Assembly: GCA_964016885.1 (NCBI GenBank)
Contig: OZ024741.1
Location: 123,070,001-123,134,000, forward strand
Length of the DNA stretch: 64,000 nucleotides
From: Eledone cirrhosa
Taxonomy: Eukaryota
Direction: 5' to 3'
Shown here: positions 3,371 to 50,477 of the stretch, piece after piece
Numbering within the stretch: position 1 is the first letter of the stretch
How the letters are laid out: the number at the start of each line of letters is the position of its first letter
Translations under genes and position numbers: made by a program
The notes under the pieces: generated by a model
Told to the model about the DNA's origin: nothing
Seen by the model: only the letters and a program-made list of their open reading frames with translations
The model's database searches: none

Positions 3371-4458
3371 TTACCGACGAAGATACGCCGGCAAAGCTAG
3401 TGAGTTCGGGGACTGGAGGCCAAGGCCGCCATACCTGACCGGTAAAGTGGCCTGTTGCCACCCTATGTCGTCAAACTTGACGTTGCATATCCCATCGGCT
3501 GCTGCTCGGATACAAGTATCGAGGTCAGCGAGGAGAGATGTCTGGGTGTAGCATGGAGCGCTACGGAGTGTACAGAAGAGCTTCGGCATGTCGAAGCAGT
3601 TCGTCAGCAGAAAGAGAGCTGGGTGGCCGTCAATCAAGCCCAGTTGGCTCGTGAGAGTCTGGAGCTGTTGAAGCTTGGACCTGATGGTGGAGCGGATGGC
3701 CGGTGGGTGGATCGGTGACACGAGGATGAGGACATCCTCTTTGGGGGTCACTTGAACCTGGCGGAGAATGGACCGCACGTCTAAGACGGAGGCTGCAAAG
3801 CTCGCAGCATCGAGGCTAACGTTCATCACCTCCGACCTGGCCGAGTTGACCTGGAGGCCGATTCCCGACAGGGCAGGAATCACTGATTGAAATTCTTGGC
3901 AGACCGTCCGTACGGGCCCGCCCAATGTAGCATCATCCAGATACCAAGCGTAGAGAGGGGCTGTGATACTCCGGGCGATGTGGTCAATACCAAGGGCGAA
4001 CAGGAGGGGTTCCAAAGGGTCGCCCTGATGGACCGCAGTAGCCGAGGGTATGACCGTATCAGCAGCTAGGAGCATGCTCGGGGCTCCATATGACATGTAG
4101 GCCAGCGGGTAGGCAGAGGGGGCTCCGCAGCTGCTAGCTGGGAAGGACCTGATGGCGGACATGATATCTGCATCAGTAGCCACAAGGAGCAGGTAGGGAT
4201 CGGGTGGGGGTATGGGTCTGAGATCAGTGGGTGACTCAGGGTGTTTGAGCTGCAGAGCAGCCAGGACCTCCTCGGTGGGTTGGAGGACAGTGTCCTCTGA
4301 GGCAACAACTCTGACTGCGGCCGAGACATCACCCATGATAAGCTTTGCGTTTACCTGGTCACGCAAACGCTTAGCGCTGGCCTCGGCGGTGGAGGATAGG
4401 GGGTACCTGAGAGTGGGGTGTGTGGCGTCCCTGGGCACGCTTGGAATGGACGCTCGGC
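3371..4458 (-). pseudogene. Reverse transcriptase fragment of the CRE-type element (internally deleted)
   Basis: QGDPL and YLDD motifs; QATLPVRYGGLGL downstream. Confidence 0.8.
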
Positions 4459-4542
4459 AAATGGTAAACGGAAAAGAGTAAAGCAAACATTACAGTACAA
4501 TGAAAATATGTTTGTTTAACGCTTGATATGGTAAGAAAAGTG

Positions 4543-10616: not shown

Positions 10617-11042
10617 AATAATTTTATTTATGGTGGTACCAAACCGAGTATTCAATCAAAGAGAGTGTATATATTAAGATGAGCAAGCCCAGTATTTCCC
10701 GTTGTTCTCCCAGTTAAAAAAAATACTAATGTTAAAGGAAAATATATATATCAAACGAAAGAAATGTATGTTCTTTTATTCTTTGATACTTTTAATGGTC
10801 TCGGTCATTAAACTGCGCGTAGGCTAGGCACTGTCTTAATTTTATCGATCATATTGATCCCATTATTCATTTTTCCTCTTTTGTTTCTTAATTTATCGAT
10901 CTCATTTTTTTTTAAACATTAAATTACACGACATGGACAGGATACAGATGCAACATAAACCAGTGACAGACATAGACAAGCAAGCAAATATATATATATA
11001 TAGAGAGAGAGACACGCACGCACACACACACACACACACATA

Positions 11043-11116
<74 letters not shown>

Positions 11117-11276
11117 GTATTAAGTATACTATTTATGGTTATGCAAATACAAAAACCTTTTGTAGTTATATATATTTTTACAAACCCTAAATAGTGGTAG
11201 GCAGTAATATATTACTACCTTATTACCAGTAAGTTAAATAGCTCAATGTAATAACATCAATGATTTACAGAGAAGT

Positions 11277-12592
11277 TATATGAATTATAAGAATCAAAGA
11301 ACTGTTCAAAACATTTTTATACTTACAACTGTTTCCTCCAAACCGAGGTTTGGATTCTTCGGAGCAATTTATTATTGAATGAACACTTATATGACCTCCT
11401 TTTCAACCCAAGAGACATACAGATACATATGCAAATATTGTGGGTCAACATCCATTACAGCCTTTAGTGTGGCAGTACACATTTAGAGATTACATTCATA
11501 TTAAAAGATAAATCAAAAATACAGGTTAAAATACATGAAATTATAAGCGGTTATTGAGTGCAATAGTTATACGTGTGGCAAGCACGTGCGTTTTGTTTAT
11601 ATAGTGTGGTAGAGAGTTACGTGTAATAGAAGCACTTAAACAGGTGATCAAGAGTGTTAAGCGGGTTGATCTGGTAATGAATTCTTTATATGATTGTTGT
11701 AGCCTGTGCGTGGAGAAATAATATAAGCATTAAAAATATTGGAAATGCGTAGCGAAGCGATGATATGCATTTCATGCACTGCAACATTTTCATAGTCCTG
11801 GGAGCGTATTTTTCAGATTATATGCCCCTCACATAGTCTACGACGATTCGATATTGGGCGGTTGATAATCATGTTAGATAATCGTAGTCTGATGGTCTTT
11901 AGCTCAATACAGCAGGTTGTTACGTTGCGAGAATCGACATCGAAATATTTCCCAGAAGTGTGTGTGTGGCTAAGGGGAGTTAATGCATGAGGGGAGGTAA
12001 CTCAGTGGTTTCTATTACTAACTATTAAATTGTGTCTCAAAATAATCCCTAACTTATATGGTTATACGCAGTTTCTAAAAATTTAAAGTGTCTTAACTAT
12101 AATATAGTCTATTAAGCTGTACTGAAGGTGTTCCTATTATGGTGATTAACCTCCATCGTAGAGTGCCACAATTGAATATTTTACACGACGAGCGAGATTT
12201 CTAAATCAATGATCATTGTGATTTTAGTCTACTCATAGAACCTGGCAGGGTGATTATAGAATCACTTCAACATATAATGATCCCTGGTAAGTTCCATGGC
12301 AGTGCATGCTATATTGGATGTCGAAAGATAACCATCACTAGGGTAGACCAGAGGTCAATCCACACTCCTCATGTCACTAATCTGACCATCTATTCATACA
12401 TATATGTACAACTCATACGCCACTTGCAATACATTCACTGCACTCAGCATACCATCCTACAGCTCATCAACGTTACTAGATTAATTAGTCTTCCATTTAT
12501 CCAACGATGGCACTTCCCCCGCATAGCACCAACAATACAATCAATTCAATGCTTAAATTTTACATTAACTATAAAGTGGTGTAGTGCAGTTC
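11277..12592 (-). repeat. Left inverted pLTR arm
   Basis: Near-identical reverse complement of 15006-16340. Confidence 0.95.
11320..11366 (-). ncRNA. Minimal hammerhead in the left arm
   Basis: Minus strand tgct-CCGAAGA-atccaaacc tc ggtttggag-GAAAC-AGTT-GTA-agta. Confidence 0.7.
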
Positions 12593-14827
12593 TTTATAAG
12601 CCCCCCTCATAACACACTACTTAACTCCTTTGAAAATGACCTAGTAAAACTAGTTAAGAACATTAAATACAATAAGAACCGTAATAGAAACAACACCTTC
12701 TTAAACAAACTTAACACCTCTATTAATGAATTCAAAACTAGTAATAAAATTATTGTACACGCGGATAAAACTAATAACATATACAGCCTGGATTATAATA
12801 CTTATAGAAAGTTTATATATAATGAACTACATAAAAGCTACAAGAAAACTACTAAGAAAAACTTAGAGGATATTAATATAGCGGGATATAATATAGTGTC
12901 TAAACTAGGACTTCAGAGGCATACACAACCATACACCCCAAACCCCCCTAGATTCTCTAAGGAGGACTTCATTAGCAACCCCTCGATTAGACTTATCTGC
13001 CCTTCCAAGTCCGACATTGGCATTATCAGCAAGAACATTTTAGATAAAATCATCCCACAAATTAAACACAAGATGCACCTTAAACAATGGGGAAATACGG
13101 GTGAAGTTATTGAATGGTTCAAAGATATCAAGAATAACAAGGATAAAAAATTTATTCAGTTTGATATCAATTCATACTACACCTCTATTTCCCCTATCCT
13201 ATTAAATAAGGCACTAATCATGGCCATGAACAATAGCGACCTGACTAGAACCCAGATTGATGTCATCCTTGCGGCCCGTAAAACCATAATCACCTTTGAG
13301 GACCAATTATTGACCCGCAAGGATACGCACAACAACTTCGACATAACCATGGGGTCTAGTGACTCGGCGCAGGTCACTGATTTGGTCGGCCTATACTTAC
13401 TTAATGGAATCCATACCTCAACGGTGGTTTGTACCGCGATGATGCACTTCTTATAGAATATAAAAATTCAATATAGAAAGAACTAGAAAACTATTGCACA
13501 AGACATTCAAAAACTTTAACCTTAGTATCACCATGGACAAAAACACTAAAAACGTTAACTTCTTAGACGCCACACTATACCTAGACTCAAAGATATATAC
13601 ACCTTTCCATAAGCCTAACGAAAAACTCATTTACGTGGATACCAAGTCTAATCACCCAAGATCAATATTAAACTCTATCGCTAAGGGGGTATCCAATAGA
13701 ATCTCTAATCTATCCTATGACGCAAACATATTTAGCAAAAACTCGTAATATTATAATCAAGCATTAGCTAGATCCGGCCATAATATAGAGATTGAGTTCC
13801 TACCTACGAAAACACACCACATAGCTACAGCATCATCTCGCACAATATGTCCATGAGGAAACCTAGTAATATGAATAGCAACCACACGCACACTAAAGCA
13901 GAGGGTGCCATCAAAAGTAACCATTACCACAGAAACTACCGTAGTACCTTAGGAGGAAACAACACACCAGACACTAAAAACAAAAATAGAAGAAGAAATA
14001 ATACATTTTTCAACCCTCCTTTCAACCTAAACGTCTCCACCAACATACCTAGGGCTTTCTTCTCACTACTAGATAAAAACTTCCCTCTAGGACACAAGTA
14101 CCATAACCTTTTAAACAAAAACACTATTAAAATCTCATACTCTACGACGCCTAACATAGCATACCACATAGCTAGTACCAATAAAAGAAAAATTAATTCT
14201 TACTTCCAACAAACGAAATCACAACAGGGGGTAAACCTTCAAAATACCTCTGTAGCAAGCAACTCTAATAACGGCAATATTAATAGAAATAGCACTAGTA
14301 TAAGCAATAACACCGGGGACGACAATCCGCATATCCAAAATCCTATAGCTACCACCCGGACTTCTGCACAGCATTATAACCAGCAGACTAACACCCGGAA
14401 TAACTGTAGAGCAAATAGAACCTGCCCTTTAGATAAAAAATGCCTAATCAAGGATATCATATACTTATGCACCGTCACAACTAGCAACTCTTCAGAAACC
14501 TATGTAGGCTCCACTTCTAACTGCTTCAAAACCAGGTATAATTCGCACATCCACTCGTTCAAAAAGCACAGTCTAGCCAGCTCCACCTCACTATCTAGCT
14601 ACATACACTATCTAAAAACTAAAAATAAACCTTACACACTCAAATGGGAAGTGATAGGTTGCGCGACTTCGTACAAACCACCTAATACATTTTATAACCT
14701 CTGTATACTAGAGACCCACACTATTATCTTCTCTAACCGTAACCTACTTAACAAAAAATCTGAAGTGTTCGAAACTTGCCAGCACCGCTTCAGAAATTCC
14801 TTCCAAAACTTTAAGCCCAATACATAG
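12593..14827 (+). pseudogene. PLE reverse transcriptase-GIY-YIG endonuclease polyprotein, disrupted by frameshifts and stops
   Basis: HADKTNNIY, FDINSYYTSI, ITMGSSDSAQ, frameshifted GGLYRDDALL (~13422), NFLDATL; linker CRANRTCPLDKKCL; IIY..TYVGST..FKTRYNSH; C-terminal LNKKSEVFETCQH. Confidence 0.9.
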
Positions 14828-17024: not shown

Positions 17025-17273
17025 GTAGAATACTGGAAGGTAATAACCGTAGTGGTAGAGCACTCATTCCATGGGACGAGTTAGGTAGATCTGATTACAC
17101 AACACTTATTTCACCATATCAAGAACAATTGTTTCATCTTAGCGGATCCTCAGCTCGTAATGGTCAAGGTTATACGGAACAGCCGTATAACCTTGACCAT
17201 TACGAGCTGAGGATCCGCTAAGGTGTAACAATTGTTCTCTGTATGGTGAACTAACTGTTGTGTAACCACTTCT
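17020..17273. mobile_element. Fold-back PLE pLTR fragment in (TA)n with two divergent hammerheads (AATT family)
   Basis: Palindrome centred near 17180; gag-CTGAGGA-tccgctaaggt-GTAAC-AATT-GTT-ctc at 17204-17239 (+); GAAAC version at 17121-17156 (-). Confidence 0.8.
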
Positions 17274-17281
17274 ATATATAC

Positions 17282-17346
<65 letters not shown>

Positions 17347-23009: not shown

Positions 23010-23292
<283 letters not shown>

Positions 23293-23450
23293 TTGGAATA
23301 AATGCTCTGAAATAGCGATATATATGTGAATATAGACATAGAATATTCGAAAATATTCTGTATGTTTATAATAAACATTTTGAAGACCTAATCGCTATAG
23401 AATAGAATACGTCACGTATTACAATTAGATTCTCGATAAAAGCAAGGGAA

Positions 23451-23493
23451 GTAATCTACGCGTTTCATTCTTGTTAGAAATCATCAGGACTAC
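23451..23493 (-). ncRNA. Minimal type I hammerhead (310-bp unit)
   Basis: Reverse complement of gtagtc-CTGATGA-tttct aaca agaat-GAAAC-GC-GTA-gattac. Confidence 0.85.
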
Positions 23494-23760
23494 ATATCCA
23501 GTGCTTTTATCGAGAATGACACAGCTAGAGACTTATAGAATACTTAGCTGTGTACAGGAACTGGTTTGAAAGAGCGGTTGCCGGTCCGGCAGAAATTAGA
23601 AATTGGAATAAATGCTCTGAAATAGCGATATATATGTGAATATAGACATAGAATATTCGAAAATATTCTGTATGTTTATAATAAACATTTTGAAGACCTA
23701 ATCGCTATAGAATAGAATACGTCACGTATTACAATTAGATTCTCGATAAAAGCAAGGGAA

Positions 23761-23803
23761 GTAATCTACGCGTTTCATTCTTGTTAGAAATCATCAGGAC
23801 TAC
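23761..23803 (-). ncRNA. Minimal type I hammerhead (310-bp unit)
   Basis: Same sequence as 23451-23493. Confidence 0.85.
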
Positions 23804-23932
23804 ATATCCAGTGCTTTTATCGAGAATGACACAGCTAGAGACTTATAGAATACTTAGCTGTGTACAGGAACTGGTTTGAAAGAGCGGTTGCCGGTCCGGC
23901 AGAAATTAGAAATTGATAAAAGCACTGGATAT

Positions 23933-23975
23933 GTAGTCCTGATGATTTCTAACAAGAATGAAACGCGTAGATTAC
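23933..23975 (+). ncRNA. Minimal type I hammerhead (310-bp unit)
   Basis: gtagtc-CTGATGA-tttctaacaagaat-GAAAC-GC-GTA-gattac; canonical core; predicted cleavage after 23969. Confidence 0.85.
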
Positions 23976-24242
23976 TTCCCTTGCTTTTATCGAGAATCTA
24001 ATTGTAATACGTGACGTATTCTATTCTATAGCGATTAGGTCTTCAAAATGTTTATTATAAACATACAGAATATTTTCGAATATTCTATGTCTATATTCAC
24101 ATATATATCGCTATTTCAGAGCATTTATTCCAATTTCTAATTTCTGCCGGACCGGCAACCGCTCTTTCAAACCAGTTCCTGTACACAGCTAAGTATTCTA
24201 TAAGTCTCTAGCTGTGTCATTCTCGATAAAAGCACTGGATAT

Positions 24243-24285
24243 GTAGTCCTGATGATTTCTAACAAGAATGAAACGCGTAGATTAC
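24243..24285 (+). ncRNA. Minimal type I hammerhead (310-bp unit)
   Basis: Identical motif 310 nt downstream. Confidence 0.85.
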
Positions 24286-24552
24286 TTCCCTTGCTTTTAT
24301 CGAGAATCTAATTGTAATACGTGACGTATTCTATTCTATAGCGATTAGGTCTTCAAAATGTTTATTATAAACATACAGAATATTTTCGAATATTCTATGT
24401 CTATATTCACATATATATCGCTATTTCAGAGCATTTATTCCAATTTCTAATTTCTGCCGGACCGGCAACCGCTCTTTCAAACCAGTTCCTGTACACAGCT
24501 AAGTATTCTATAAGTCTCTAGCTGTGTCATTCTCGATAAAAGCACTGGATAT

Positions 24553-24595
24553 GTAGTCCTGATGATTTCTAACAAGAATGAAACGCGTAGATTAC
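24553..24595 (+). ncRNA. Minimal type I hammerhead (310-bp unit)
   Basis: Identical motif 620 nt downstream. Confidence 0.85.
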
Positions 24596-24720
24596 TTCCC
24601 TTGCTTTTATCGAGAATCTAATTGTAATACGTGACGTATTCTATTCTATAGCGATTAGGTCTTCAAAATGTTTATTATAAACATACAGAATATTTTCGAA
24701 TATTCTATGTCTATATTCAC

Positions 24721-24753
<33 letters not shown>

Positions 24754-24765
24754 TATATACATATA

Positions 24766-24840
<75 letters not shown>

Positions 24841-24844
<4 letters not shown>

Positions 24845-25252
24845 GTATGGGTTTCCCGAACATTTATTATAATACTCGGTTTGTTGGTAAACGAACAGCC
24901 CGAAATAGTAGTTCGACATAGTGTTCGGAAACCATGTTGCCCTTTTGTTCGACACTGACTAGGAAACAATGAACTAGTTTTTAGCTTATTTGCTGTCAAC
25001 AGCATCGTATACCTTCCTGTCAGTTGATTGAACGTTTGAAAGTATATACTTTCCTTTTGCATATTAACGGCTGAGCAGCCTAATTTGTATATCAAGTGAG
25101 TTCGTCGGCCGGGTTTACCGAAAACAATAAATGGAAAAAAATGAAATTTCATTTCTCACTCTTAGTACGGCTGATACTTAAATATAAGTATGTATACGTA
25201 CATACATATATGTATACAGATATACACTAGTATGTATATACATACATACATG

Positions 25253-25351
<99 letters not shown>

Positions 25352-25526
25352 CGTATGGGTTTACCGAACATTTATTATAATGGTTGGTTTGTTTGTAAAC
25401 CAAAAGCCAGAATTAGGAGCCGTACAGTGTTCGGAAACCATCGTTGGTCCTTTTGTTCAACACTGACTAAGGAACGATGAACTGGTTTCTAGCTTATTAG
25501 CTGTCATCAGCATCGTATACCTTCCT
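24841..25526. repeat. Two diverged copies of a ~178-bp repeat, each starting right after (TA)n
   Basis: gtacgtatgggttt(c/a)ccgaacatttattataat..cagcatcgtataccttcct at 24841 and 25349. Confidence 0.75.
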
Positions 25527-27633
25527 ATATATATATACAAAATTTAGTACAGCATCAACGAAGCCATGGTTGCAGCCAAGCAAACGAATGCAGTTTCGGT
25601 GTGCAGCTAAGCAGTCGGATAGGGTATATAACCCTAGAGTTATAACATTACGTTTAGACAGCTTTGCAAAGAGAGAGAGAGAGAGAGAGTCAGTCAGTGA
25701 GAGATGGATAGAGAAATAGATATGTAGATAGATATGTATGTGCGTGTGGGCGTGCGCAGGTGTATGTATCAATACTTGAAAAATGTCAAGTACTGTAGGC
25801 ACATAACAGAGTTAACATAGTACCTGAGTAGAAAAATGTTTTGAGTATAGATTTCGTCTTGTTTGATGTGATACACACATGCGTGTGCACACTCAGTCTC
25901 ATACACAAATACACACACACAAACACACACACATATATATATAAATAGGCATAAATATATAACGTAACATTAACAAACCGAATAAACAATTATATAGATA
26001 AGAGTTGAAAGATCTACCAAAACAAATTTGGCGTAAAAGAAATATTATTGAAAACAAAGACTAAAATATATTTGAGCACGTTTGTGTGGGAAGTGAAATG
26101 TGGGGAAAAAATGTCTTACAGAACAGTTTAAACAAATGTCTAGTATTTTATGTACATGAGATAAGAAACAAAAATATCAAAAACAGCTATAGCTGAAATA
26201 GTTTCCTCAAGTTGAACTGAAACCAATTGTAGAAAGGAAACTTTAAAGCACGATTTTCAATATGTTTTCAATATGTTGAAGTCTACAAATAACAATAGTT
26301 AGAAAATCATGTAATAAAAAAAATTACTATATTAAAAAATGTATCACTTTCTAGGTAGTAGAGAACGGGTGCATCAATGTAACATTATATTTAACGAAAT
26401 ACTATGTTAAATATTTTGCTATTTAAATATATAAATCACGAGGAGTATGGAATGTTTATAGATTTATAGTGAAAATCTCAACTTTCGTTTACAGCGTCAC
26501 TATTGCGAATATTTTTTCAGATAAAGATAGGAAACACAAATCGGTATTTCAAAGTAATAGTGTATTTAACAAAATAGAATTTTAAATATTTTGTTATGTA
26601 AATCAATCAATGTCATGACCCAGGCAGACGGTTTACAGTTGTATATCGAAAATCTAAATTATTGTTTGCAACAGCACTGTTGCGGTTAAATCCTCCGAAT
26701 TGTTATGATGAAAGTAGGAAACATTGATAAATTTATAAATGCCTTGTTTTAGATTTCAGTCGGGTGAGATTGAATACATTTCTTTTCAGCTCACAGCTTT
26801 TAACGAATAAGCACTAATTGTTTCTACTTTTGGCACAAGGCCAGCAATTATACCAGTGTATTACTGGTAGTTTATTTTATCGACCCCTTAAGGCAAAGTT
26901 AACCACGGCGGGATACACACGCACGCGCACACACACACACATATATATTGTTTATATATGTGTGTGTGTGTGCGCGTGCGTGTGCGTGTGTTTTGTATAT
27001 ATAAATATATATATAAACATATACAGACAATTAAAATACAACAAACACTAGAAAAGTAATTCTTATCATTTTTCAAATATATATTAATATAACAAGAATT
27101 TCTAAAATTTGTATTATATATATATATGTGTGTATGTGTGTGTGTCTATATGTGTGTGTGAGAGTGGTTGTGTGTGCATAAATATATATATATAGAGAGA
27201 GAGAGAATGAGAGTGAGAGGGAGAGTGAGAGATGCATGTATATATATATATACACACACACACACATATATATATAAGTATTTTTGACTATGTGTGTGTT
27301 CGCGTGTTTTTATTCATGTATTGCGACTTTCCATGAATTTAGAAGAAAGGTTAGGTGCATCTTCAAATCTTTACTAATTTTTCCTTATACAACGTGGAGG
27401 TGAGTGGCTTATAGTTGGATTCACAATAGTGAGGTTGTGAGTTCCATTCCTGGTCTGTACTATGCGTTATTTTCTTGAGCAAGGCGCTTTATTTCGCAAT
27501 GCTGCTTCTGCCAAGTAGATAGTTTCCGTAATTGAAAAGACCAATGGCAACGTTGTTTCCTTATGCAATCTGACGAGTTCTACCCATTCGGTTAGTGAAG
27601 GAGGGTTAGGATCTTCTCGATTCGGATCATCCC

Positions 27634-27871: not shown

Positions 27872-29703
27872 ATGGCGGAAAAGATGGCAGACATGTCTGC
27901 CATTAGCTCTGCCACGCCCCCCAAGTCTGAAGAACAAAAAATAATTACAACAAAATTAGACATTGAAACAAACAAACAAAATGAAAAACAAATGTTAAGG
28001 AAAATGAGCAAACAGAAAACAAACAAACAGAAAATAATACAAATAACGACAGGGCAACTTTCGCCCAGAAAACAAAACAATCCATTACATACACACCAAT
28101 TGACCTAACTGCCGCCAGAGAAAAACTGGCCGAAGCAAAGAAACACATTGTTTTGGGGGAGAACGGAATGTTTTCCATTAACTCCCCCCCAGAATTCAAG
28201 AAAGCCAGAGCAGAAAACACAGTTCTCTACAGAACTATACTGAACCAGACAAGAAAGCCAGCATAGCCCAGCCAAATGGAAATAGAGTTAGTCCTAAAAG
28301 ACTATATGAAGAATATTCTCTTCATACGAAAGGACCGACTCTATGGCAGCATTTCGGTCCTAACAAGAGACAAAGAAACGGCGGAGAAGCTTTCCCTAAG
28401 CCCACTCTCGTCGACAACATATAGCTTCTATCCCTCCTACATGGGTAGAAGAACACAGAGAGTAAAAGTAAAAACAATGCTGCCCACAATGGACTTCTGG
28501 TGGGCTATTGCTGGCTTCATTGATATGGGCGAAGACACAATGCTGTCAATGGGGAAGGCAACTGGAGATGCGTTCCTGGGAATGGGCCTCGACATACTAG
28601 TCCAAATGAGGCCCGAAAGAATAGCACAAATCCCGGATCGCATCTGGCTGGATGACCTTACCCCAATAGACATAATTGTAGAGGGGAGAAGACCAGCATG
28701 CTATTTATGCATGGAAAGGGGACACGTTAAGGCTAACTGCCCGAAACGTATCCCCCAAAAAGGACTATTGCCCACACCCACCACAAACAGTACACCAACA
28801 CCACCCACCTCCAAAAATACACTAATACCACACACAGCAAACAAAATACAGACACCACCAACCACAAACACAACACAAACATCACCACCACCAGCACCAA
28901 ACACAAGCACGACACAAAAATCACCACCACCAACCACAACACAAACATCACCACCACCATCACCAACCACAAGCACGACACAAACATTACCACCACCACC
29001 ACAAAACCCATTCCAAACAAATAATAAAAAAAACAGTAACAAATCTACCCCTCCCGCAAAAAAAAAACAACCACACAACACGTCCCTCCCACCTAGCGCT
29101 GAAGAGTTTCCCCCAACTTCTGAAGAAGAAGGAGGAGAAGCCTTCAGACAAGTTAAAAGAAAAAAAAGAAAACACACACCCAGCACACCACAAATAACCC
29201 ACACACAAACACCAACTCCAATCAAAAACACCCCACCCTCAACAAACAAAAATAAATCTGCGCCTCCCCTCTCCGAAACATTGACAGCATCACAAAAAAA
29301 GACGTTGCAATACACATATATAAATAAAGAAAACAAAAAACTGGTTAAATTAATAAACAATAACCCTATGGTGCAGACCGAAGGGCCAAACTTTATCTCA
29401 ACAGAGAACTTCACCCATTTAAAAATGATAAAGGTCCCTCTGGACCTTTATCGTTCCTTAAAAGAACAATTTAGACGGGACGTGAGCCCCCCCTGTTTAA
29501 AACCGTTGAATCGCGTCCTCTTGAAAGATTTCCCCATAACCGCCCCTCTCCCTGACACAACTCCAAATACCCCAACCCCACCACACACGTGTACCCCCAC
29601 ACCACCACAAAACATCCCTCCACCCAACACACCTGATGCCATGGAAATTACGCAACCCGGAGAGGTAAGTGCTTTTCTTTCTTCACTTTCAACACCAAAA
29701 TAG
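27872..29703 (+). pseudogene. Tx1 ORF1 (gag-like, zinc knuckle), disrupted
   Basis: CYLCMERGHVKANC; the upstream part aligns with copy-4 ORF1 (GENG..KPA*PSQ vs KPEQPSQ) across a frameshift near 28070 and a TAG at 28264. Confidence 0.85.
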
Positions 29704-29708
29704 ATCAA

Positions 29709-32700
29709 TTGAGAGTTGGCTGTTTGAACGCGCGTGGCCTGGGCTCAGCTTGGAAGCAAGCAAAGCTTCTAAGTGACCTCAGGTCACAAAGTATAGATGT
29801 GATGGTTGTTTGCGAGAGTCGGATCAGCAGCGTGAGACAGCTGGCGCCCGCCTTCGATGACTTTGAGATGCACGCATCTCTCTGTCAACCCGGAGGCGGG
29901 GGGGGGGGGGAGTTGCCGTACTGCTGGATAAACGTCTGACTCTCGACGTACAGATTGTTCACTCGGACCCGGGGGGTCGATTACTGGTGCTGGACGTCGG
30001 AGGCGGTGAAGGCGGGGCTTTCAGACTGGTCGGTCTTTATGCTCCCTTCGGGGCGGAAAGAGCCGACTTCTTCCAGCGTCTGGAGACTTTTCTAGGAACG
30101 TCGCGTTCCCTGCTTTTAGTGGGGGACTGGAATGGAATCCTAGATGCGCGTTGGGACTATGCAGGGGCATGTCCCGATAGAGGGGGGTGTAGCAGCCTCA
30201 AGGGGTTACTCGATCGATTCGACCTGGTCGATAGATTTCGACTAGATTGTCCAACTGCGCCAACCTGGACCTGGGCAAACCGCAGTGGACAATCTAGATC
30301 GTACCTAGATAGGTTTTTGGTTAGGAGTAAGGATAGGGACGTATTTAGTTGTCCAGAACTGATCATGGTTGGCTATTCAGATCACAAATTAGTGACCTGC
30401 GTGGTCAACCTTGATAGAACGCATAGACAGGGTCCCGGTTACTGGAAGATGAACTTGTCCTTACCGACAAAGAAAGATTACAGAAACCGGATTAGTAGCT
30501 TAGTTAAGATGCGGTTGACGGGAGCGATCGTCAACAGTAGGTGGTGGATATCTCTAAAGAGAGAGATTAGAGTAAGTTCGATAGGTTACAGTAAGGAACT
30601 AGCGGCGAATAGAAATAGGAGGGAAAGGGAGTTAACAGATAAACTAGAAGAGGCGATTAGGAGCGGAGACGTAGCCAGAGTGTTAGCGACGAGAACGGCA
30701 TTGAGCCAGTTCTTTGACGCGAAGCACGAAGGCTGCGTTGTCCGAAGTAAAATACGTGCTTTAGGAAACGAGGGGACCAAAGCTGTTAGCTGGGCCCGCG
30801 TGACAGAAGCCAAGAGTGGGATTAAATCCACCATTCGGTCTTTGCGAGACCAGGATGGACGGGTGATCCTTGAACCTGAGCGAATGTGCGAGACCTTTCA
30901 AAGGCACTTTGCTCGACTGTTCGGAGGTGGCGGGGGGCCGGACGGGGATGTGGACTTCGGTCCATACCTCGACGGTCTACCGCGTCTTTCGAGCGGCGAA
31001 GCGGAGTGCTGCGAAAGGCCAATCACAGCCACTGAAATCGGGGAAGCGCTCAGCCAATGCAGCAGACGCAAATCCCCGGGTCTCGATGGTCTACCATACG
31101 AACTTTATTTAGCTATGCCGGTCTTGTTCTCCGAACTCCTCGAGGCTGTCTATTGCAACTGGCAACAGAACGGGAGAATTCCCTGCTCTGTGACCAAGGG
31201 CGTGGTCACGCTAGTGAGGAAGGACGAGAGCAAGGGGGACGACTTAAGTAACTTTAGGCCCATAACTCTGCTGAATGCAGAGTTACAGATTTTGGCCAAG
31301 GTGTTGGCGAAGAGGTTGGCGCTTGTGGTGGGTGGTTTGGTGGGAGACGCGCAGACATGCGCTATCCCGTCCAGGTCCATTCACGACAACCTCCACCTCA
31401 TGCGATACATCATAGAGAGGGTTGGCTACGAACCCGGCTTTGGTGGGGCCCTGATCAACTTGGATCAATCTAAGGCGTTCGATAGGGTCGACCATGGTTA
31501 CCTGGATGCGGTGCTAGCGGCGGCGGGCTTCGGACCCGTTTTCAGGGGCTGGATTTCTGCCATGCACAGTGGCAACATCTACTCTAGGATTAAAGTAAAC
31601 GGCTACCTCTCGGAGCCGTTTCAAATCACCCGATCCATCAGACAGGGGTGCCCCCTCTCCTCCCTTCTGTACGTATTGACTCTCGAGCCACTGCTGCGGA
31701 AGTTGGAGTTGCTGCGGGGCATACCCCTGGAACTGGGATTGCACAAAGCGGTCTCGGCCTATGCCGACGACGTAACAGTAATGGTGGCGGACGCCTCGGA
31801 AATCGGGGCGATCGCCACCCTACTGGAGGAATACGAAAGGCTGACGGGGGCTAAGCTGAACCAGGACAAGTCAGTCGGTTTGCAACTCGGAACGTGGAGG
31901 GGCAAACCGATGCCGTTAGACGGTGTCGTCGGGCGGTGGACGGAGGGCCCGGTGAAGCTGCTCGGGGTCTGGTTCGGATCGGACCTCCAGGTGGAGAAGA
32001 ATTGGGGCGAGGTGACGAGCAGGGTGTTTGCGCTGACCCAGAAGTGGGCCAAGTGCAAACTATCACTGAAAGGTCGGGCGGAGGTGACGAACGCTTACAT
32101 AGCGTCCGTCATCTACTACCGCCTGACCGTCGTGCCTTGCCCCAAGGAAAAGCTCACCATCATGGAACGCATGCTCTTCCAGTTCCTCTGGAAGAAGCGG
32201 CCTCCCATGGTGAGGAGATCCATCTGCTGCCAGCACCCTTCGAAAGGAGGGCTGGGTATGCCGTGGCTGTTGATGCGTAGGCACGCATTGAGGCTACGGC
32301 ATCTACAGGTATTCCTCAACGGTCAGCCGGTGTGGGCCCCGTTTGTGAGGCGAGCCTTCCCACAGCTCGTCTCGCTCAGCGAACTGCAATCCTGGGTGAA
32401 GCAAAGACCGAGAAAACTGGGCAACTGGCACACCGAGTGTGCCCAGGCGCTCACGGCTATCTGGCAAGCGGACCCGACTGTCAGTGGAGAATCCACCTCG
32501 ACATTCTATAGAGGGTTGGTGGCTAGCAGGGGCGATGACACCCTTGGAGAGTCGCTAGGCATGGAGGAGGACGAACTGGCCAGCCTGTTCGGTAGAACTT
32601 TCGGCCCGGGACCCATGGATAACTTCCAGAGGTCCCTAGCCTGGCAGTGTTACCGGGGGGCTCTGCCCGTTCGAGAAAAGCTCTACAGACACGGGCGCCC

Positions 32701-33142
32701 GGGCAGGGATCCCGCGAAAAAGATCTGTCCCAGATGCGTGCGCGACGAGGAAACCGTTGCGCATGCACTGGTACACTGCCCGGGCGTTGCCGATCTGTGG
32801 GGCTACGTCGAACGACTGCTGTCGCGTGTGGCGCCGATTCGATTAACCGCCGAGTCTGTGGTGAACATCAAGCCGCCTCCTCCCTTCAGAAATGAAGCAG
32901 AGGCGGTCTTTCTGTGCGTAATAGCCATGATGAAAGAGGTTGTGTGGTGGACGCGCCTGAAAGGTCTGAGGTCGGGTGACTTTCTCTCCGGCCATCACCT
33001 GGTTTACTTCTTCCGATACCACTTCGGAAGAAGAATCAGGATGGAGAGAGAAGTGCTTGGTCCCAGACAGTTTTATGAAAGGTGGGTGAAAGAAGCGAGA
33101 ATGGCCCGTGTAAATGGGCCTTCTCTCTACATTGTTCTGTAG
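29709..33142 (+). pseudogene. Tx1 ORF2 (AP endonuclease-RT-zinc finger), frameshifted in a poly-G run near 29900
   Basis: CLNARGL, VGDWN, SYLDRF, SDHK, GPGYWK, SPGLDGL, LDQSKAFDRV, RQGCPLS, AYADD, CPRC..ETVAHALVHC. Confidence 0.92.
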
Positions 33143-33373
33143 GTGAAGAAGTGAAGAGGAAAGGGGGAGCGCCTCCTCTCTGGGCTTCCCCCGCGAAAAG
33201 AGTTGCACACTTTTCGGGGGTATGTGCAATCCCCAACACGCCCCCTCCCTTTTGAGGACTTTTTATTGTTATATTATTATTGTTATTCCTTTTTTCTTTA
33301 CTCGATTTATGTAAACTCCCCCACTGTGTAAATGTCCCCTTCTTTTGTGCCCTCGTGGCAAATAAATAGAAAT

Positions 33374-33407
<34 letters not shown>

Positions 33408-33409
<2 letters not shown>

Positions 33410-33732
33410 GGGTGAAAGTGGCGAGAATGGCCCGTGTGAATGGGCCTTCACTCTACATCAGACTATAGGTGAGGAAGATGAAAGACCAAGGGAGCACCCC
33501 TTCTCTGTGCTCCCGAGGAGAAGGGTTGCACACTTTTTTCGGGGGTGTGTGCGACCCCCCAAGGCGCCTCCTCTCTATTGAGGACTTTGTTATAAATTTT
33601 ATTTTTTGTTATATTTTATTTTATTTTTATATATTGTTATTGCCTCCTCCTTATTGAGGACGCCTTGTTTTGTAAACTCCCCCCATTGTACTTGTCCCAC
33701 TTTTGATGCCCTGGTGGCAAATAAAAGAAACA
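33408..33732 (+). mobile_element. Severely 5'-truncated Tx1 copy 2 (last ORF2 codons + 3' UTR)
   Basis: WVKVARMARVNGPSLYIRL*; 3' UTR nearly identical to copy 3; (TCTA)n both sides. Confidence 0.9.
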
Positions 33733-33793
<61 letters not shown>

Positions 33794-33836
33794 CTCTATC
33801 TCTCTATCTCTCTCTCTCTCTATCTATCTATCTATC

Positions 33837-34940
33837 CTCTACGTATTCCTCACCGGACAACCGGTGTGGGCCTCGTTTGTGAGACGAACCTTTCCCAGAC
33901 TCGTCTCACTCACCGAGCTGCAATCCTGGGTCAAGCAAAGACCGAGAAAACTGGGCGCCTGGCACACTGAGTGTGCCCAGGCGCTCACCGCCCTCTGGCA
34001 GGCGGATCCGGTTATCAGTGGAGACTCCACCGCAACATTCTATAGAGGGCTGGTACGCAGCAGGTGCGACGACGCCCTCGGAGAAGCCCTAGACATGGAG
34101 GAGGACGAATTGGCCAGCCTGTTCGGTAGGACATTCAGCCCGGGACCTATGGACAACTTCCAGAAGTCCCTGGCCTGGCAGTGCTACCGAGGGGCTTTAC
34201 CCGTTCGAGAAAGGCTCTACAGACACGGGCACCCGGGTAGGGACCTCGCCAAAAAGATCTGTCCCAGATGCGTGTGCGACGAGGAAACCGTTGCACACGC
34301 ATTGGTACACTGCTCGGGCGTAGCCGATCTGTGGGGCTATGTCGAACAACTGCTGTCAAGGGTGGGACCGATCCGGTTGACCACCGAGTCTATTGTAATG
34401 ATCAAGCCGCCTCCCCCCTTCAAAGATGAAGCAGAGGCGGTGTTTCTGTGCGTAATAGCAATGGCGAAAGAGGTTGTATGGTGGGCGCGTCTGAAAGGAC
34501 TGAGGTCAGGCACCTTTCTCGCTGGCCAACAACTGGTCCGTTTCTTCCGATACCATTTCGGAAGAAGGATCAGGATGGAGAGAGAGGTGCTGCACCCCAG
34601 CCGTTTCTATGAAAGATGGGTGAAAGTGGCGAGAATGGCCCGTGTGAATGGGCCTTCACTCTACATCAGACTATAGGTGAGGAAGATGAAAGACCAAGGG
34701 AGCACCCCTTCTCTGTGCTCCTGAGGAGAAGGGTTGCACACTTTTTTCGGGGGTGTGTGCGACCCCCCAAGGCGCCTCCTCTCTATTGAGGATTTTGTTA
34801 AACATTTTATTTTTTGTTATATCTAATTTTATTTTTATATTTTGTTATTGCCTCCTCCTTATTGAGGACGCCTTTTTGTGTAAACTCCCCCCTTTGTACT
34901 TGTCCCACTTTTGATGCCTTAGTGGCAAATAAAAGAAACA
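33837..34940 (+). mobile_element. 5'-truncated Tx1 copy 3 (ORF2 C-terminus + 3' UTR)
   Basis: VFLTGQPVW..CPRCVCDEETVAHALVHC..NGPSLYIRL*; (TCTA)n both sides. Confidence 0.9.
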
Positions 34941-34958
34941 TATCTATCTATCTATTTG

Positions 34959-35032
<74 letters not shown>

Positions 35033-35263
35033 AAATCTAGCTGTCGTCTGTTCTACAGTGTGGATGTCATTCACTTCGCACAGAAGTTCTGTTCAAATTT
35101 ATTGAGGAAATTTTGTGAGTTCAAACTTAATTTTGATACAATTGTGTAGCTTGACCCTCCGTCTGAACTGTCAGGCGGTGGGTCAGCTCATCTTTACCCC
35201 TCCTAGAGGTGAAAAACCTGTTTTAAAAAATTTTGTGTAAAAAATTTCAATCGTCTAACAGAA

Positions 35264-37164
35264 ATGTTAAACGCAGCGAACGAAAATAGTGGTGGGGGGA
35301 CAGCGGTAAGAGTTGTAAGCTCGCACGCTTTAGTCCTCCCTTCCTTCCCAACTAACGTCATAGAGAAGGAAGGAAAAATGAAAATAAAAACGGACGAATC
35401 TGCGGAGAAAAAATTAAATGACGAAAACATAAATCTGGACTTGGATTCCAACAACGAAAAAAAAAAATTTGAAAAATTGCATGACAATACTAATAACACA
35501 AACAAAGACACAACAAACAAAAAAATAACAGTTGAAAATAACATCATATCAGAAAACAAAGCAGACGACAAGATTTCATTTGCACAGAAAACAAAGAAAT
35601 CTTTGACTTATATAGCGGAAAACATTTCAGATATGGTACGAAGGATCACGGACGCAAAACAATACATAAGTGAAGGTGAGAATGGTATTTTATTGGTAAA
35701 AATGCCTCAAGAATTCACGAAAGACATTGAAAGCCGAACGGTCAAGTTTCGGACCATCAACAACAGTACAAAAAAACCTGAACAGCCTTCTCAAGCAGAT
35801 ATCAAAACAGTACTCACAGAAGTACTGAATGAAACAACTTTCATAAGAAAAGACAGACTGTATGGAAGCCTAGCAATTATCATGAAGAACGAATCGGCGG
35901 CAAAAAAATGTGCTTTGTCACCGATTCGTTCGAAAAATTTCACCTTTTATCCATCTTATATGGGAAAAAAAACTCAACGCATATGGCTGGATGCAATGAT
36001 GCCAGATGTGGACTACTGCTGGCTCATAGCTGGCTTCATCGATCCAGTGAATGACAACGTGATTTCCATTGGGAAAACCACAGGCAATGCGTTCAGTGGA
36101 ACAGGTATAGAGCTGGTAGTACAAATGAAGCCTGAACGCATCGCCCAAATACCCGACAGAATCCTATTAGAGGACCACGGGTATATAAACATTAGTGTGG
36201 AGGTGAGAAGGCCGTCCTGCCATATCTGTGCAGGCAGAGGGCACCTGAAGGCCGCTTGTCCCCAACTCAACAAAAAGAAAACCCTGCTACCAACACCAGC
36301 TCCACCACCACCACCACAACAGATAAACAAACAACAAAACTCAGTCCCACCCAACCCGTCCCTCAGTAACACCACAACACCACCACAACACAAACAGTCA
36401 CAACACATTACCCCAAAACAAAATACAGGCCCACCCAACCTCTCACTCAATAAAACAACACAACCACCGCAGACACAACACACAACACAGTCTAACATAG
36501 TGACATCCATCTCCCCCACAAAGAAAACCAACACGGAAACATTACCAGCAAACATACCTCTTCCCTCCAACACTGAAGATAACCCAACGAATTCGGAGGA
36601 AGAAACGGAGTCCTTCAGACAGATTAAAAGGAAAAAAAGAAAACATGTGCAAAACACACAAGGACAAACAACCCCCACCCAAATCGCAACACAATCCAAC
36701 AAAACAGAAAACACCCCTCCAGCAACAAACAAAACCAAACCTGCCCCTCCCCTCTTCGAAACACTCACACCATCGGAAAAAAAGACATTACACTATACTT
36801 ACATCAACAGAAACAATAATAAATTAAATGAACTCATATACAATAATCCTTCGGTACAAACCGAAGGTGTAAACTTTGTTTCGTCAGAAAACCACCCACA
36901 TTTAAAACTAATAAAATCCCAATGAACCTCTACCAAAAACTAAAAAAGGATTTTAAGGAGGACGTAGGACCACCCTCTGTCAAACCCATAAACCGCGTCC
37001 TACTAAAAAACTTTCCCCCTCCCCTTCCCCTCCCCAACACAACTCCAAACACCCCAACCCCACCACACACTGACGACCCCACACCACCACAAGACACCCC
37101 TTCACCCAACACCCCTGACCCCATGGAAGTCGTGCAACCCGAACCCCGGGAAGCGGAAAGGTAG
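35264..37164 (+). pseudogene. Tx1 ORF1 with a late frameshift near 36920
   Basis: CHICAGRGHLKAAC; continuation ORF 36922-37164 matches the copy-1 C-terminus. Confidence 0.85.
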
Positions 37165-37197
37165 GTCTCTACACTCTCCTTTGGCTCTGCCGCCCAC

Positions 37198-40100
37198 ATG
37201 GATGTGTTAAGAGTAGGATGTTTGAATGCACGTGGCCTGGGCTCAACTTGGTAGCAAGCAAAGCTTCTAAATGACCTCAGGTCATGTAGTATAAATGTAA
37301 TGGTTATCTGTGAGACTCGAATCAGCGTCATGCGGCAGCTGGCCCCCACCTTCGATGACTTTGAGGTGCATGCATCTCTCTGTCAACCTGGAGGTGTGGG
37401 TGGGGTTGTCGTGCTGCTGCAAAAACACCTGGGTCTTGCCGTACAGGTTGTGCACTCGGACCCGGAGGGTCGTTTGTTGGTGCTAGACGTTGGCAGTAGT
37501 GAAAGTGCGGCCTTGAGACTGGTCGCCGTCTACTCCCCTTTCGGAGCTGAACGGCCCGACTTCTTCCAGCGTTTGGAGACTTTTCTGGGAGCGTCGCGTT
37601 CCCTGCTTCTAGCGGGGGATTGGAATGACATCCTGGATGCACGTTGGGACTATGCAGGAGCATGTCCTAATAGAGGGGGGTGTAACAGCCTCAAGGGGTT
37701 ACTCGACCGTTTTAACTTGGTCGATAGATATCGACTAGATTTTCCAACTGTGCCTACCTGGACTTGGAGAAACCATAGTGGTCAATCTAGATCGTACTTA
37801 GATAGATTCTTAGTTAGAAGTAAGGATAGGGACATATTAAGCTGTCCAGAAATGCGCACGGTTGGCTACACGGATCACAAATTAGTGACCTGCGTGGTCA
37901 ATCTCGAGAAAACACATAGACAGGGTCCCGGTTACTGGAAACTTAATTTGTCTTTACCGGCAAAAGAGACTTACAGAAACCGGATTAGCAGATTAGTTAA
38001 GGAGAGGTTGACGGGTGCAATCGTCAACAACCGATGGTGGGCATCTCTCAAAAGAGAGATTAGAACAGAATCAATAAGTTATAGCAAGATGTTAGCTGCC
38101 AATAGGAATAGAAACGAGAAAGAATTAACAGGTAAATTAGAAGAGGCAATCAAGAGCGAAGATGTGGCCAGAGTGCTGGCATCGAGGACGGCCTTGAACC
38201 AGTTTTTCGATGCAAAGCATGAAGGCTGCGTCATTCGAAGTAAAATACGTGCTCTAGGTAATGAGGGGGCCAAAGCCATTGGATGGGCCCGCGTGACAGA
38301 AGCTAAGAGTGGAAATCGATCCACCATCCGGTCGTTGCAAGACGAAGATGGACGAGTGATCCGGGAGCCTAAGCAGATGTGCGAGGCCTTTCAAAAGCAC
38401 TTTGCCCGATTGTTCGGGGGAGGCGAGGGTCCGGGCCGGGGCGTGGATTTCGGTCCATACCTCGACGGCCTGCCGCGTCTCTCGAACAAAGAGGCAGAGT
38501 CCTGCGAGGGACCAATCTCGGCTGATGAGATCGGAGATGCGCTGAGCCAATGCAGCAGACGCAAATCTCCAGGTCTCGATGGTATACCTTACGAACTTTA
38601 TTTAGCAATGCCGGTCTTCTTCTCCGAACTCCTCGAAGCGGTCTACTGCAATTGGCAGCAGAACGGGAGAATTCCTTGTTCTGTAGCCAAGGGCGTAGTC
38701 ACGCTGGTGAGGAAGGACGAGAACAAGGGGGATAGTATAAATAATTTTCGGCCCATAACCCTGCTAAACACAGAGTTAAAGATTTTGGCCAAGGTGTTAG
38801 CAAAGAGGTTGGCGCTTGTCGTGGGTGGCCTGGTGGGAGATGCGCAGACATGTGCTATCCCATCCAGGTCCATTCACGATAACCTCCACCTCATGCGATA
38901 CATCATAGAGAGGGTTGGCAACAAACCCGGCTTCGGTGGGGCCCTGATCAACTTGGATCAGTCTAAGGCCTTCGATAGGGTCGACCATGGTTACCTGGAT
39001 GCGGTGCTAGCGGCGGCTGGGTTCGGTCCTGTTTTCAGAGGCTGGATCACTGCCCTACATAGCAACCACATCTGTTCTAGGATCAAGGTGAACGGCTACC
39101 TTTCGAAGCCGTTCGAAATCACACGATCCATTCAACAGGGGTGCCCTCTCTCCTCCCTTCTGTACGTATTGACTCTCGAGCCTTTACTGAGGAAGTTGGA
39201 GTTGTTGCAGGGTATCCCCCTGGAACCAGGATTGAGCAAAGCGGTGTCGGCCTACGCCGATGACGTAACAGTAATGGTATCAACCGACTCGGAGATCGAG
39301 GCGATCGGTACCTTACTGGAGGAGTACGAAAGGTTGTCAGGAGCGAAACTGAACCGGGAAAAATCCATCGGGCTGCAACTCGGAACGTGGAGAGGCAAAC
39401 CGATGCCTCCTGACGGTGTCGTCGGACACTGGACGGAGGGCCCGGTAAAGTTGCTTGGGGTCTGGTTTGGACCGGACCTCCAGGTGGAAAAGAACTGGAA
39501 CGAGGTTACGAACAAGGTGTTTGCACTAACCCAGAAATGGGCCAAGTGTAAGCTGTCCCTAAAAGGCCGGGCGGAGGTAGCGAACATTTACATAGCGTCC
39601 GTCACTTACTACCGCCTGACTGTCGTGCCTTGCCCTAAGGAAACACTCACCACCATGGAACGCATGCTCTTCCAATTTCTTTGGAAGAAGCGTCCTCCTA
39701 TGGTGAGAAGATCCATCTGCTGCCAACAACCTTCGAAAGGAGGGCTGGGGATGCCGTGGTTGATGATGCGTAGGCACGCATTAAGGCTACGGCACCTACA
39801 GGTATTCCTCACTGGTCAACCGGTGTGGGCTCCGTTCGTGAAACGAGCCTTTCCGAGACTCGTCTCACTCACCGAGCTACAGTCCTGGGTCAAGCAAAGA
39901 TCCGGAAAACTGGGAGACTGGCACACTGAGTGTGCTCAGGCGCTCAGGGCTCTCTGGCAAGCGGGCCAGGCCATCGGTGGAGAATCCACCTCATCATTCT
40001 ATAGAGGGCTGGTGGCTAGCAGGGGCGATGACACCCTTGGAGAGTCGCTGGACATGGAGGAAGACGAACTGGCCAGCCTGTTCGGTAGGACTTTCGGCCC

Positions 40101-40635
40101 AGGACCAATGGACAACTTCCAGAAGTCACTGGCCTGGCAGTGCTACCGAGGGGCTCTACCCGTTCGAGAGAGGCTCTACAGACACGGGCGCCCGGGCAGG
40201 GATCCCTCAAAAAAGATTTGCCCTAGATGCGTGCGTCACGAAGAAACCGTAGCGCACGCATTGGTGCAATGTCCGGGCGTGGCTGATCTGTGGGGCTACG
40301 CCGAACAACTGCTGTCGCGGGTGGCGCCGATTAAATTGACCGCCGAGTCCGTGATGACAATCAAACCGCCTCCCCTCTTCACAAAGGAAGCAAAGGCGGT
40401 TTTTCTGTGCGTAATAGCCATGTTGAAAGAGGTTGTTTGGTGGACACGATTGAAAGGTCTGAGGTCAGGCAACTTCCTCTCTGGCCATAGTCTGGTCTAC
40501 TTCTTCCGATATCACTTCGGAAGAAGGATAAGAATGGAGAGAGAGGTGCTTGGCCACAGGCAGTTTTATGAAAGGTGGGTGATAGTGGCGAGAATGGCTC
40601 GTGTAAATGGGCCTTCTCTGTATACCATCCTGTAG
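37198..40635 (+). pseudogene. Tx1 ORF2 (APE-RT-zinc finger), one early nonsense codon
   Basis: ATG at 37198 (MDVLRVGCLNARGL); TAG at 37252 where copy 1 has AAG; otherwise open with all RT and APE motifs. Confidence 0.92.
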
Positions 40636-50413: not shown

Positions 50414-50476
<63 letters not shown>

Positions 50477-50477
50477 C

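Follow-up and report, generated by a model that had tools for sequence, protein, structure and literature searches.

A young 310-nt hammerhead-bearing repeat family of Eledone cirrhosa with two-armed insertions and Penelope-type fixed ends

The window analysed (64,000 nucleotides; contig OZ024741.1, positions 123,070,001 to 123,134,000, Eledone cirrhosa assembly GCA_964016885.1) was found to contain a 310-nt unit repeated in two arms of opposite orientation within a (TA)n microsatellite (Table 1). An earlier note on this DNA had described two copies of the unit on the minus strand followed by about 2.6 copies on the plus strand between (TA)n tracts. This was confirmed, the arms measuring 2.01 and 2.63 units and both showing 100% identity to the 310-nt unit, with all five copies alike. 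Positions within the unit were numbered from the base after the predicted cut (position 1 is 23970 of the window). The unit has a GC content of 34%, and its longest ATG frame, read round the circle, comprises 30 codons. An inverted repeat of the window (I1) begins at 23318, directly past the 26-nt tail by which arm 1 overhangs arm 2, and the position of the junction between the arms was different at every locus examined.

Table 1. Features of the 310-nt insertion, given as positions of the window
Feature	Position	Strand	Basis or remark
(TA)n microsatellite, left half of insertion target	23012..23291	.	repeat call
Arm 1, 624 nt, 2.01 units; 3' end at unit 165 (tail, long), 5' end at unit 162	23292..23915	-	
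26-nt tail (unit 140-165), overhang of arm 1 past the arm 2 end point	23292..23317	-	
Hammerhead motif, predicted cut 3' of 23457	23451..23493	-	core and stems
Hammerhead motif, predicted cut 3' of 23767	23761..23803	-	core and stems
Arm junction, 5' to 5', 1-nt microhomology (one base common to both arms)	23915	.	
Arm 2, 814 nt, 2.63 units; 5' end at unit 256, 3' end at unit 139 (short)	23915..24728	+	
Hammerhead motif 1, type I, predicted cut after 23969	23933..23975	+	core and stems, Rfam
310-nt unit between two neighbouring predicted cuts (putative monomer or circle)	23970..24279	+	
16-bp helix 23982-23997 / 24219-24234, closing the remainder of the unit below the ribozyme	23982..24234	+	
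Insertion module, unit 59-235, holding both arm end points	24028..24204	+	76% identity to sister family
Hammerhead motif 2, predicted cut after 24279	24243..24285	+	core and stems, Rfam
Hammerhead motif 3, predicted cut after 24589	24553..24595	+	core and stems
(TA)n, right half of target, then (TC)n	24729..24768	.	

The hammerhead motif consists of stem I (GUAGUC/GAUUAC), the core CUGAUGA, stem II (UUCU/AGAA behind a U-U first pair), GAAA, a palindromic stem III (ACGCGU) and the cut triplet GUA. It had been called canonical, with palindromic ACGCGT at stem III and cuts at 23969, 24279 and 24589; the core CUGAUGA...GAAA and the GUA triplet were indeed present in all five copies of the window, but stem II starts with a U-U mismatch. 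Rfam Hammerhead_HH9 gave a full-length alignment on the unit with 19.2 bits compared to a gathering score of 52 (E 0.032), so the call is based on the core letters and stems I and II and not on Rfam. Matches to miRNA families of Rfam in the window were shown to be TA/CA repeats. No ribozyme core was found on the opposite strand of the unit. The stem III resembles that of HHR_Amex1 (one pair and a palindromic tetraloop) and the U-U first pair of stem II that of HHR_Amex2, as given in the text of Cervera and de la Pena 2020 (PMC7229834), where ribozymes with a weak stem III are described to cut as dimers. The predicted ribozyme may be weak, given the U-U pair and the minimal stem III, and it probably folds as a dimer through the palindromic stem III to cut out monomers.

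Folding of the unit gave -72.5 kcal/mol (z -4.4), better than 100 of 100 shuffled sequences. Six of the seven helices proposed earlier were found in the minimum free energy structure (tgccgg/ccggca as 5 bp); the seventh, atgtttat/ataaacat, was absent from it and present in the consensus fold of the family. Both fixed variants located within the 16-bp helix change an A-U pair into a G-U pair.

Pattern searches across the 3.0-Gb assembly showed 4,584 exact matches to the 32-nt ribozyme core (reversed control: 0), 1,401 matches to the long-type arm end (unit 165-167), of which a few are internal variants, and 1,295 to the short-type arm end (unit 139). The genome contains about 1,400 insertions. 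By extrapolation from a mean of 10 units per two-armed insertion (median 9; arms from 0.2 to about 45 units), the total amounts to roughly 11,000-14,000 units. Together with the window, 90 fetched stretches gave 88 analysable insertions after removal of L033 (gap) and of L036 and L097 (overlaps). The insertions examined consisted of units only, without an LTR, and were non-coding: neither the unit nor any insertion examined contained an ORF, such as that for a reverse transcriptase (RT) with a GIY-YIG domain found in autonomous Penelope-like elements (PLEs). A tandem unit within 150-450 bp, one type I hammerhead motif per unit, low GC content with a stable self-paired fold, and dispersed copies with target duplications over 4 bp where visible characterise non-LTR retrozymes, and the proposed retrozyme identity is supported by a hammerhead-bearing, non-coding tandem unit dispersed in about 1,400 insertions. 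Changes confined to a single unit numbered 126 in 257 kb over the 88 insertions (0.05%), a low divergence by which the burst is recent, as had been supposed. With a loosened hammerhead pattern, the 100 places listed out of 4,060 mainly held a variant form of this family. Among four runs of assembled contigs, X1, X3 and X6 each contained one 340-nt self-closing contig, identical to the unit and with a depth of 10-15, and X2 contained 641 contigs with the A>G variant at 24264. The closed contigs were rejected as a sign of an RNA circle, since a tandem DNA repeat yields the same closed contig.

Within the first 202 Mb of contig C1, the lists of arm ends comprised 100 ends of the long and 96 of the short type. 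All 63 outward-facing end pairs within 20 kb consisted of one long and one short end, and no pair was of the same type; 70 of the 196 listed ends had no partner in the lists. The same rule was found in 8 complete two-armed insertions chosen by the ribozyme alone and in 13 insertions chosen by one end only. Short-type ends lie at unit 139 and long-type ends at unit 165-170, at a distance of 26-31 nt, and the ribozyme-sense 3' end always points outward. The ends had been read as AT microhomologies with (TA)n; they are instead fixed sites common to the whole family. The term fold-back was likewise misleading, as the arms are two separately started copies without a hairpin snap-back. The 26-nt tail of the window would sit between two reverse-transcription start sites (compare the tail described in the main text of PMC11167929). 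About 8 of the 88 loci were one-armed; their 5' ends also adjoined short repeats, and no PLE match was found in their 5' flanks.

In total, 150 of the 167 arm 3' ends at the 88 loci ran directly into at least 3 TA/AT repeats. The only AT-rich target that was not a repeat (L034) showed a clean 15-bp target duplication, and candidate duplications of 12-13 bp were seen at L058 and L113, most duplications being hidden in (TA)n. The 158 inner (5') ends at 79 junctions were distributed evenly round the unit (chi-square p 0.57), and only 2 of them were located within 5 nt of the predicted cut, by which an RT stop at the ribozyme cut, as expected for a linear monomer template, was rejected. Blunt or overlapping junctions were found in 58 of the 79 cases and 1-28 filler bases in 21; junction microhomology reached up to 6 nt, with a mean of 2.0 compared to 0.74 simulated by chance. 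The paired ends and (TA)n flanks found genome-wide agree with the suggestion that an RNA was copied over more than one unit, starting on either strand of a cleaved (TA)n target. In L037, the two arms are separated by 272 nt without relation to the unit (L037:2599-2870), likely an RNA captured by template switch; no match was found among the sequences compared, and none to PLEs.

Most variants were either common to all units of the two arms or confined to one unit, with intermediate cases in 7 of the 88 insertions. Altogether 34 haplotypes were distinguished, and 13.5% of random insertion pairs were alike in haplotype. Only in L111 did the haplotypes of the two arms disagree, through a switch inside one of them, and L113 contained one reverted unit. 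Fifteen fixed variants were each restricted to one sampled insertion, although these may have unsampled relatives, as 88 of about 1,400 insertions were sampled. Thirteen of the 15 were present in both arms over at least 3 units; the variant of L116 was seen once per arm and is ambiguous, and that of L065 was covered in one arm. Given the present divergence, about 12 newly fixed variants would be expected in 79 insertions from a template of one unit (15 seen), whereas linear copying of today's arrays predicts about 38 lap-mirrored variants (2 events seen), a ratio that is robust to parent age and not to unsampled relatives of the singletons or to homogenisation of the parent. One of the two events was a unit-specific variant in L060, mirrored at one site and at an equal lap in both arms; the other was L072, in which two units of one haplotype were followed by up to 16 of another, in equal order in both arms. 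These mirrored variants show that both arms start in one unit of one molecule and that multimers were sometimes copied. In the long arms of L037, L049 and L098, scattered variants common to several units point to local recombination after insertion. The arm of about 45 units in L097/L098 carried variants over several non-adjacent units. Across the predicted cut, 828 laps showed one substitution nearby and no single-unit indel within 5 nt, which fits a sealed circle or an uncut multimer; jumps of the RT over a nick with addition of untemplated bases were therefore not supported. The choice between circular and multimeric RNA had been left open earlier; the pattern of fixed or single-unit variants speaks for a template of one unit in the majority of insertions. 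The simplest such template is a circular RNA copied by rolling-circle reverse transcription, and a circle was probably the usual template.

None of the 30 distinct fixed substitutions was located in the 11 core bases. Six of the 30 break a predicted pair, all in helices with a pairing probability of 0.41-0.54, and the 7 located in helices of probability 1.0 all keep the pair. Loss of a pair or a change in the core was significantly more frequent among the single-unit substitutions (49 of 104) than among the fixed ones (Fisher p 0.011). The RNA is thus under selection, with the core spared and G-U pairs tolerated, and the ribozyme seems to matter for spread, since fixed variants spare the catalytic core. 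Variation within the ribozyme was located at a free core position, in loop II and at the U-U pair of stem II, which is turned into A-U in a common haplotype. The pair-keeping fixed changes were A>G in 8 of 10 cases compared to 44% expected (one-sided p 0.023, calculated post hoc and with the direction of change not fixed), at most a hint that A-to-I edits returned to the DNA. Haplotypes with a 311-nt unit, in which a base is added 2-3 nt past the cut, were detected in L041, L046, L067 and L094, as well as in L065 and L075; where the added base is C, stem II also has the repaired A-U pair, and stem I may be strengthened.

The layout of these insertions has counterparts in PLEs. According to the main text of Craig et al. 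(10.1101/2021.04.23.441226), PLEs show partial tandems with an inverted 5'-truncated copy, a tail of 30-40 bp on one end only and (TA)n targeting, and Hydra-clade PLEs carry hammerheads. Frangieh et al. (PMC11167929) describe in their main text a PLE protein, predicted to be a dimer, by which AT-rich DNA is cut and extended on either strand. Copying begins at two sites inside the RNA, the spacing of which corresponds to the tail; for PAc in vitro the dominant substrate was uncut RNA, and cleavage was not needed for insertion. The 310-nt family shares with the EN+ PLEs (Poseidon PAc, Hydra, Neptune and Naiad), as far as described in these texts, the inverted 5'-truncated copy, the one-sided tail, two end sites downstream of the hammerhead and (TA)n targeting, its tail of 26-31 nt being slightly shorter than the PLE range of about 30-40 nt. 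Unlike these elements it has no ORF, the whole element being a single unit of which an arm holds as many as about 45 copies, and its ends are strictly one of each, whereas in the main text of PMC11167929 the strands showed no difference in start site.

Within the same genome, a Hydra-type PLE family was detected with a DKT motif, a CxCX5C linker, a C-terminal GIY-YIG domain and many 832-codon frames among 150 scored matches. This PLE, young and of the Hydra clade, carries a hammerhead of its own and a tail of about 165 nt, and its copies have a two-arm form like the 310-nt family. Its arms showed 0-3 differences in 2.4 kb within each of five insertions (5/5) compared to 8-41 between insertions, and a long end was combined with a short one in L212 and L218, the insertions with both ends visible. 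A Neptune-like PLE family with frames of up to 1,217 codons was also present. No sequence match of the unit or module to PLE terminal repeats was found among the three PLE families examined, the young Hydra-clade and Neptune-like PLEs included. Two fixed ends, a tail, inverted arms and a (TA)n target together form a PLE signature, in line with the Penelope-like RT named in the earlier note, and a PLE enzyme very probably moves the 310-nt family.

A motif search for relatives, excluding the next base of the own family, gave 229 matches, most of which belonged to an older sister family of about 321 nt (L181-L210) that has unit 59-235 in common at 76% identity. The sister family ends at equivalent places in (TA)n and also has outward arms. 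Its hammerhead-like motif, read by eye, differs by a palindromic ACAGAGCUCUGU stem III and a GUC triplet, and its core is one that we take to be a U3-A8 variant. One hairpin of the module showed two-sided changes between the families; overall, two-sided changes affected 6 of 31 pairs and the covariation term was -0.04, a weak signal across families, with the 5' helix misaligned. The simplest reading of these sequences would be a PLE-loading module combined with an exchangeable ribozyme. Besides, an older 312-nt form of the 310-nt family was present at L190 and a third, more distant relative at L206. An inverted repeat at L226:2540-2860 contained the ribozyme core and U-U pair as in the 310-nt family, without the module and with unrelated flanks.

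From these results we consider it likely that a borrowed PLE protein with RT and GIY-YIG domains copied one RNA, usually and probably a 310-nt circle, from both cut ends of a (TA)n target. A tandem array would be transcribed, and its hammerheads, probably as dimers, would release monomers that a host ligase closes into circles, as in known retrozymes. A dimer of the PLE protein may then bind unit 59-235 and nick both AT-rich strands about 12-15 bp apart. One RT would start at unit 139 and the other at unit 165-170 of one RNA, if the start sites are read according to PAc biochemistry, and each would run several laps, pass the cut site and stop at random, consistent with the uniform 5' ends. The two cDNAs would finally be joined 5' to 5' by 0-5 nt of microhomology or short filler, in keeping with the junctions seen. 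In a minority of events linear multimers would be copied, or a template switch would take place. A farther-reaching version of this scheme is less likely: the circle itself would be the heritable unit, on which a PLE dimer loads two RTs that make both arms simultaneously, so that each insertion is a clonal record of one RNA molecule, A-to-I edits in its helices included, and the circles would evolve in a modular way, with ribozymes exchanged and the structure for PLE loading retained.

In LINE-1 twin priming, both target ends prime on one RNA, which gives an inverted 5' part joined by microhomology, and the second start is variable and internal. Compared to this, the 310-nt family has two fixed starts at a distance of 26-31 nt, and either arm is longer than one unit. 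Twin priming might nevertheless always have used an uncut linear multimer, without any circle and with homogeneity due to recombination in the source arrays. L072 and L060 do need a multimeric template, and the scattered shared variants in long arms indicate local homogenisation; the ribozyme is weak, cleavage was dispensable for insertion in PAc (PMC11167929, main text), and Li et al. 2026 (10.64898/2026.07.22.740005) propose, in the text available, local amplification for retrozyme arrays. The mirrored variants expected from such copying in 76 kb of shared arm span were nearly all missing, however (2 of about 38), fixed variants spare the catalytic core, and multimers offer no simple route by which 13 variants could become fixed in the two arms of an insertion or 34 haplotypes stay clean; we therefore regard this explanation as unlikely. 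If the circle was first replicated from RNA to RNA by a host polymerase, as in viroids, and the PLE protein copied the resulting uniform linear multimer, the same uniform arrays would be formed and two RTs could work on one molecule without collision. The branched fold is viroid-like, and the heterogeneity of mussel circRNAs beyond genomic copies (PMC7229834, main text) would fit as well. This explanation requires an extra activity, and the opposite strand of the unit carries no ribozyme core, which makes it distinctly improbable.

An origin at DNA level, from extrachromosomal DNA circles or break-induced fold-back replication with the hammerhead as a passenger, would also explain uniform units, because a DNA minicircle yields them too, and the inversion is located in fragile (TA)n. 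It fits poorly with the strict one-of-each pairing of two fixed ends, the ribozyme-sense 3' end that always faces outward, a layout identical to that of the autonomous PLEs of this genome and a selection that obeys RNA rules (G-U tolerated, core spared), and it is given very little credence here. That the inversion or the unit identity is an artefact of the assembly can be dismissed almost entirely. The inversion is read here from the assembly; 79 inner junctions all lie at different places with the outer ends fixed, and the 126 preserved single-unit variants show that units were not collapsed. Copying of one RNA, usually a circle, by a PLE protein from both target ends thus remains the preferred explanation.

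Non-LTR retrozymes were defined by Cervera and de la Pena 2020 (PMC7229834), who showed circles in coral, mussel and axolotl and proposed circle-templated tandem cDNA made by a LINE or PLE RT; the same proposal of circle to tandem cDNA had been made for PLEs in a 2014 paper (PMC4209133), both as stated in the main texts. Like the metazoan non-LTR retrozymes described there (coral, mussel, axolotl Rtz_331/Rtz_353), the 310-nt family has a non-coding tandem unit within 170-400 nt, one type I hammerhead per unit, low GC content and a branched fold. The retrozymes of PMC7229834 are direct tandems (the word "inverted" occurs 0 times in the text of that article), whereas nearly all 310-nt insertions are two-armed with fixed PLE-type ends, and circular RNA was demonstrated for the former, whereas the 310-nt family is known here from genome sequence. 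In Li et al. 2026 (10.64898/2026.07.22.740005), the link between retrozymes and PLEs is based on their co-occurrence and on pLTR homology, and Xenopus retrozyme dimers are reported to cleave in vitro in 1 of 9 cases and not in 8 of 9. Vertebrate non-LTR retrozymes, regarded there as non-autonomous PLE derivatives with PLE machinery as the proposed means of movement, coexist with intact PLEs, as the 310-nt family does, according to the text available; local amplification is proposed there for their arrays, whereas the ends and haplotypes of the 310-nt family indicate that arrays arrive ready-made. Chlamys non-autonomous elements (e.g., MRC1) are mostly without hammerheads and resemble the 3' ends of their autonomous partners (10.1101/2021.04.23.441226, main text).

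A literature search outside supplements, subscription papers and Repbase/Dfam found no description of the 310-nt family or of two-armed retrozymes, in agreement with the earlier note, to whose author no such description was known. The kind of element and the circle-template hypothesis are already known; the family, the two-armed layout with fixed ends and the haplotype evidence for a monomer template are apparently new, as judged from the texts available. The movement of animal retrozymes has so far been a hypothesis, in which circles are copied by an unidentified RT and PLEs are suspected from co-occurrence. In about 1,400 nearly identical young copies the insertion mechanism becomes readable: PLE-type ends, one RNA for both arms and a one-unit bottleneck. 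The tail plus inverted copy of PLEs, for long without an explanation, becomes a strict rule with one start site per arm, which fits a dimeric enzyme. A compact 310-nt substrate, start sites known to the base and intact PLE proteins as candidates form a system for testing rolling-circle target-primed reverse transcription in vitro.

Further elements were observed in the window and the fetched stretches. A decayed copy of a Hydra-clade PLE, in which Pfam finds nothing, is located at 12575-14827 (+); intact frames of 832 codons are numerous in its family, which carries a variant hammerhead with the core CCGAAGA and the stem III CAGCTG, and the two ends lie at a distance of about 165 nt. A second Hydra-type PLE family, seen at one locus, appears older, and an abundant Neptune-like PLE (L219-L238), with a terminal-repeat hammerhead without stem III, ends in (TA)n. 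Two copies, 508 nt apart, of a hammerhead-like element of about 190 nt ending in (TA)n were found at 24816-25526 (-), with a weak HH9 match at 25462-25528; this family is other than the 310-nt one. A small hammerhead-bearing repeat (CTGAAGA...GAAACAATTG) was located at 17080-17300, 49372-49445 and 50470-50570, with outward arm pairs ending in (TA)n at 17.1-17.2 kb and 49.4 kb, and is probably another non-autonomous PLE family. The window also contained tandem LINE copies at 28267-40635 (+), with a long ORF1 and intact-looking APE-RT frames of 1,091 and 1,126 codons, a broken non-LTR RT at 2426-4489 and a pol fragment of an LTR-retrotransposon at 62201-63829.
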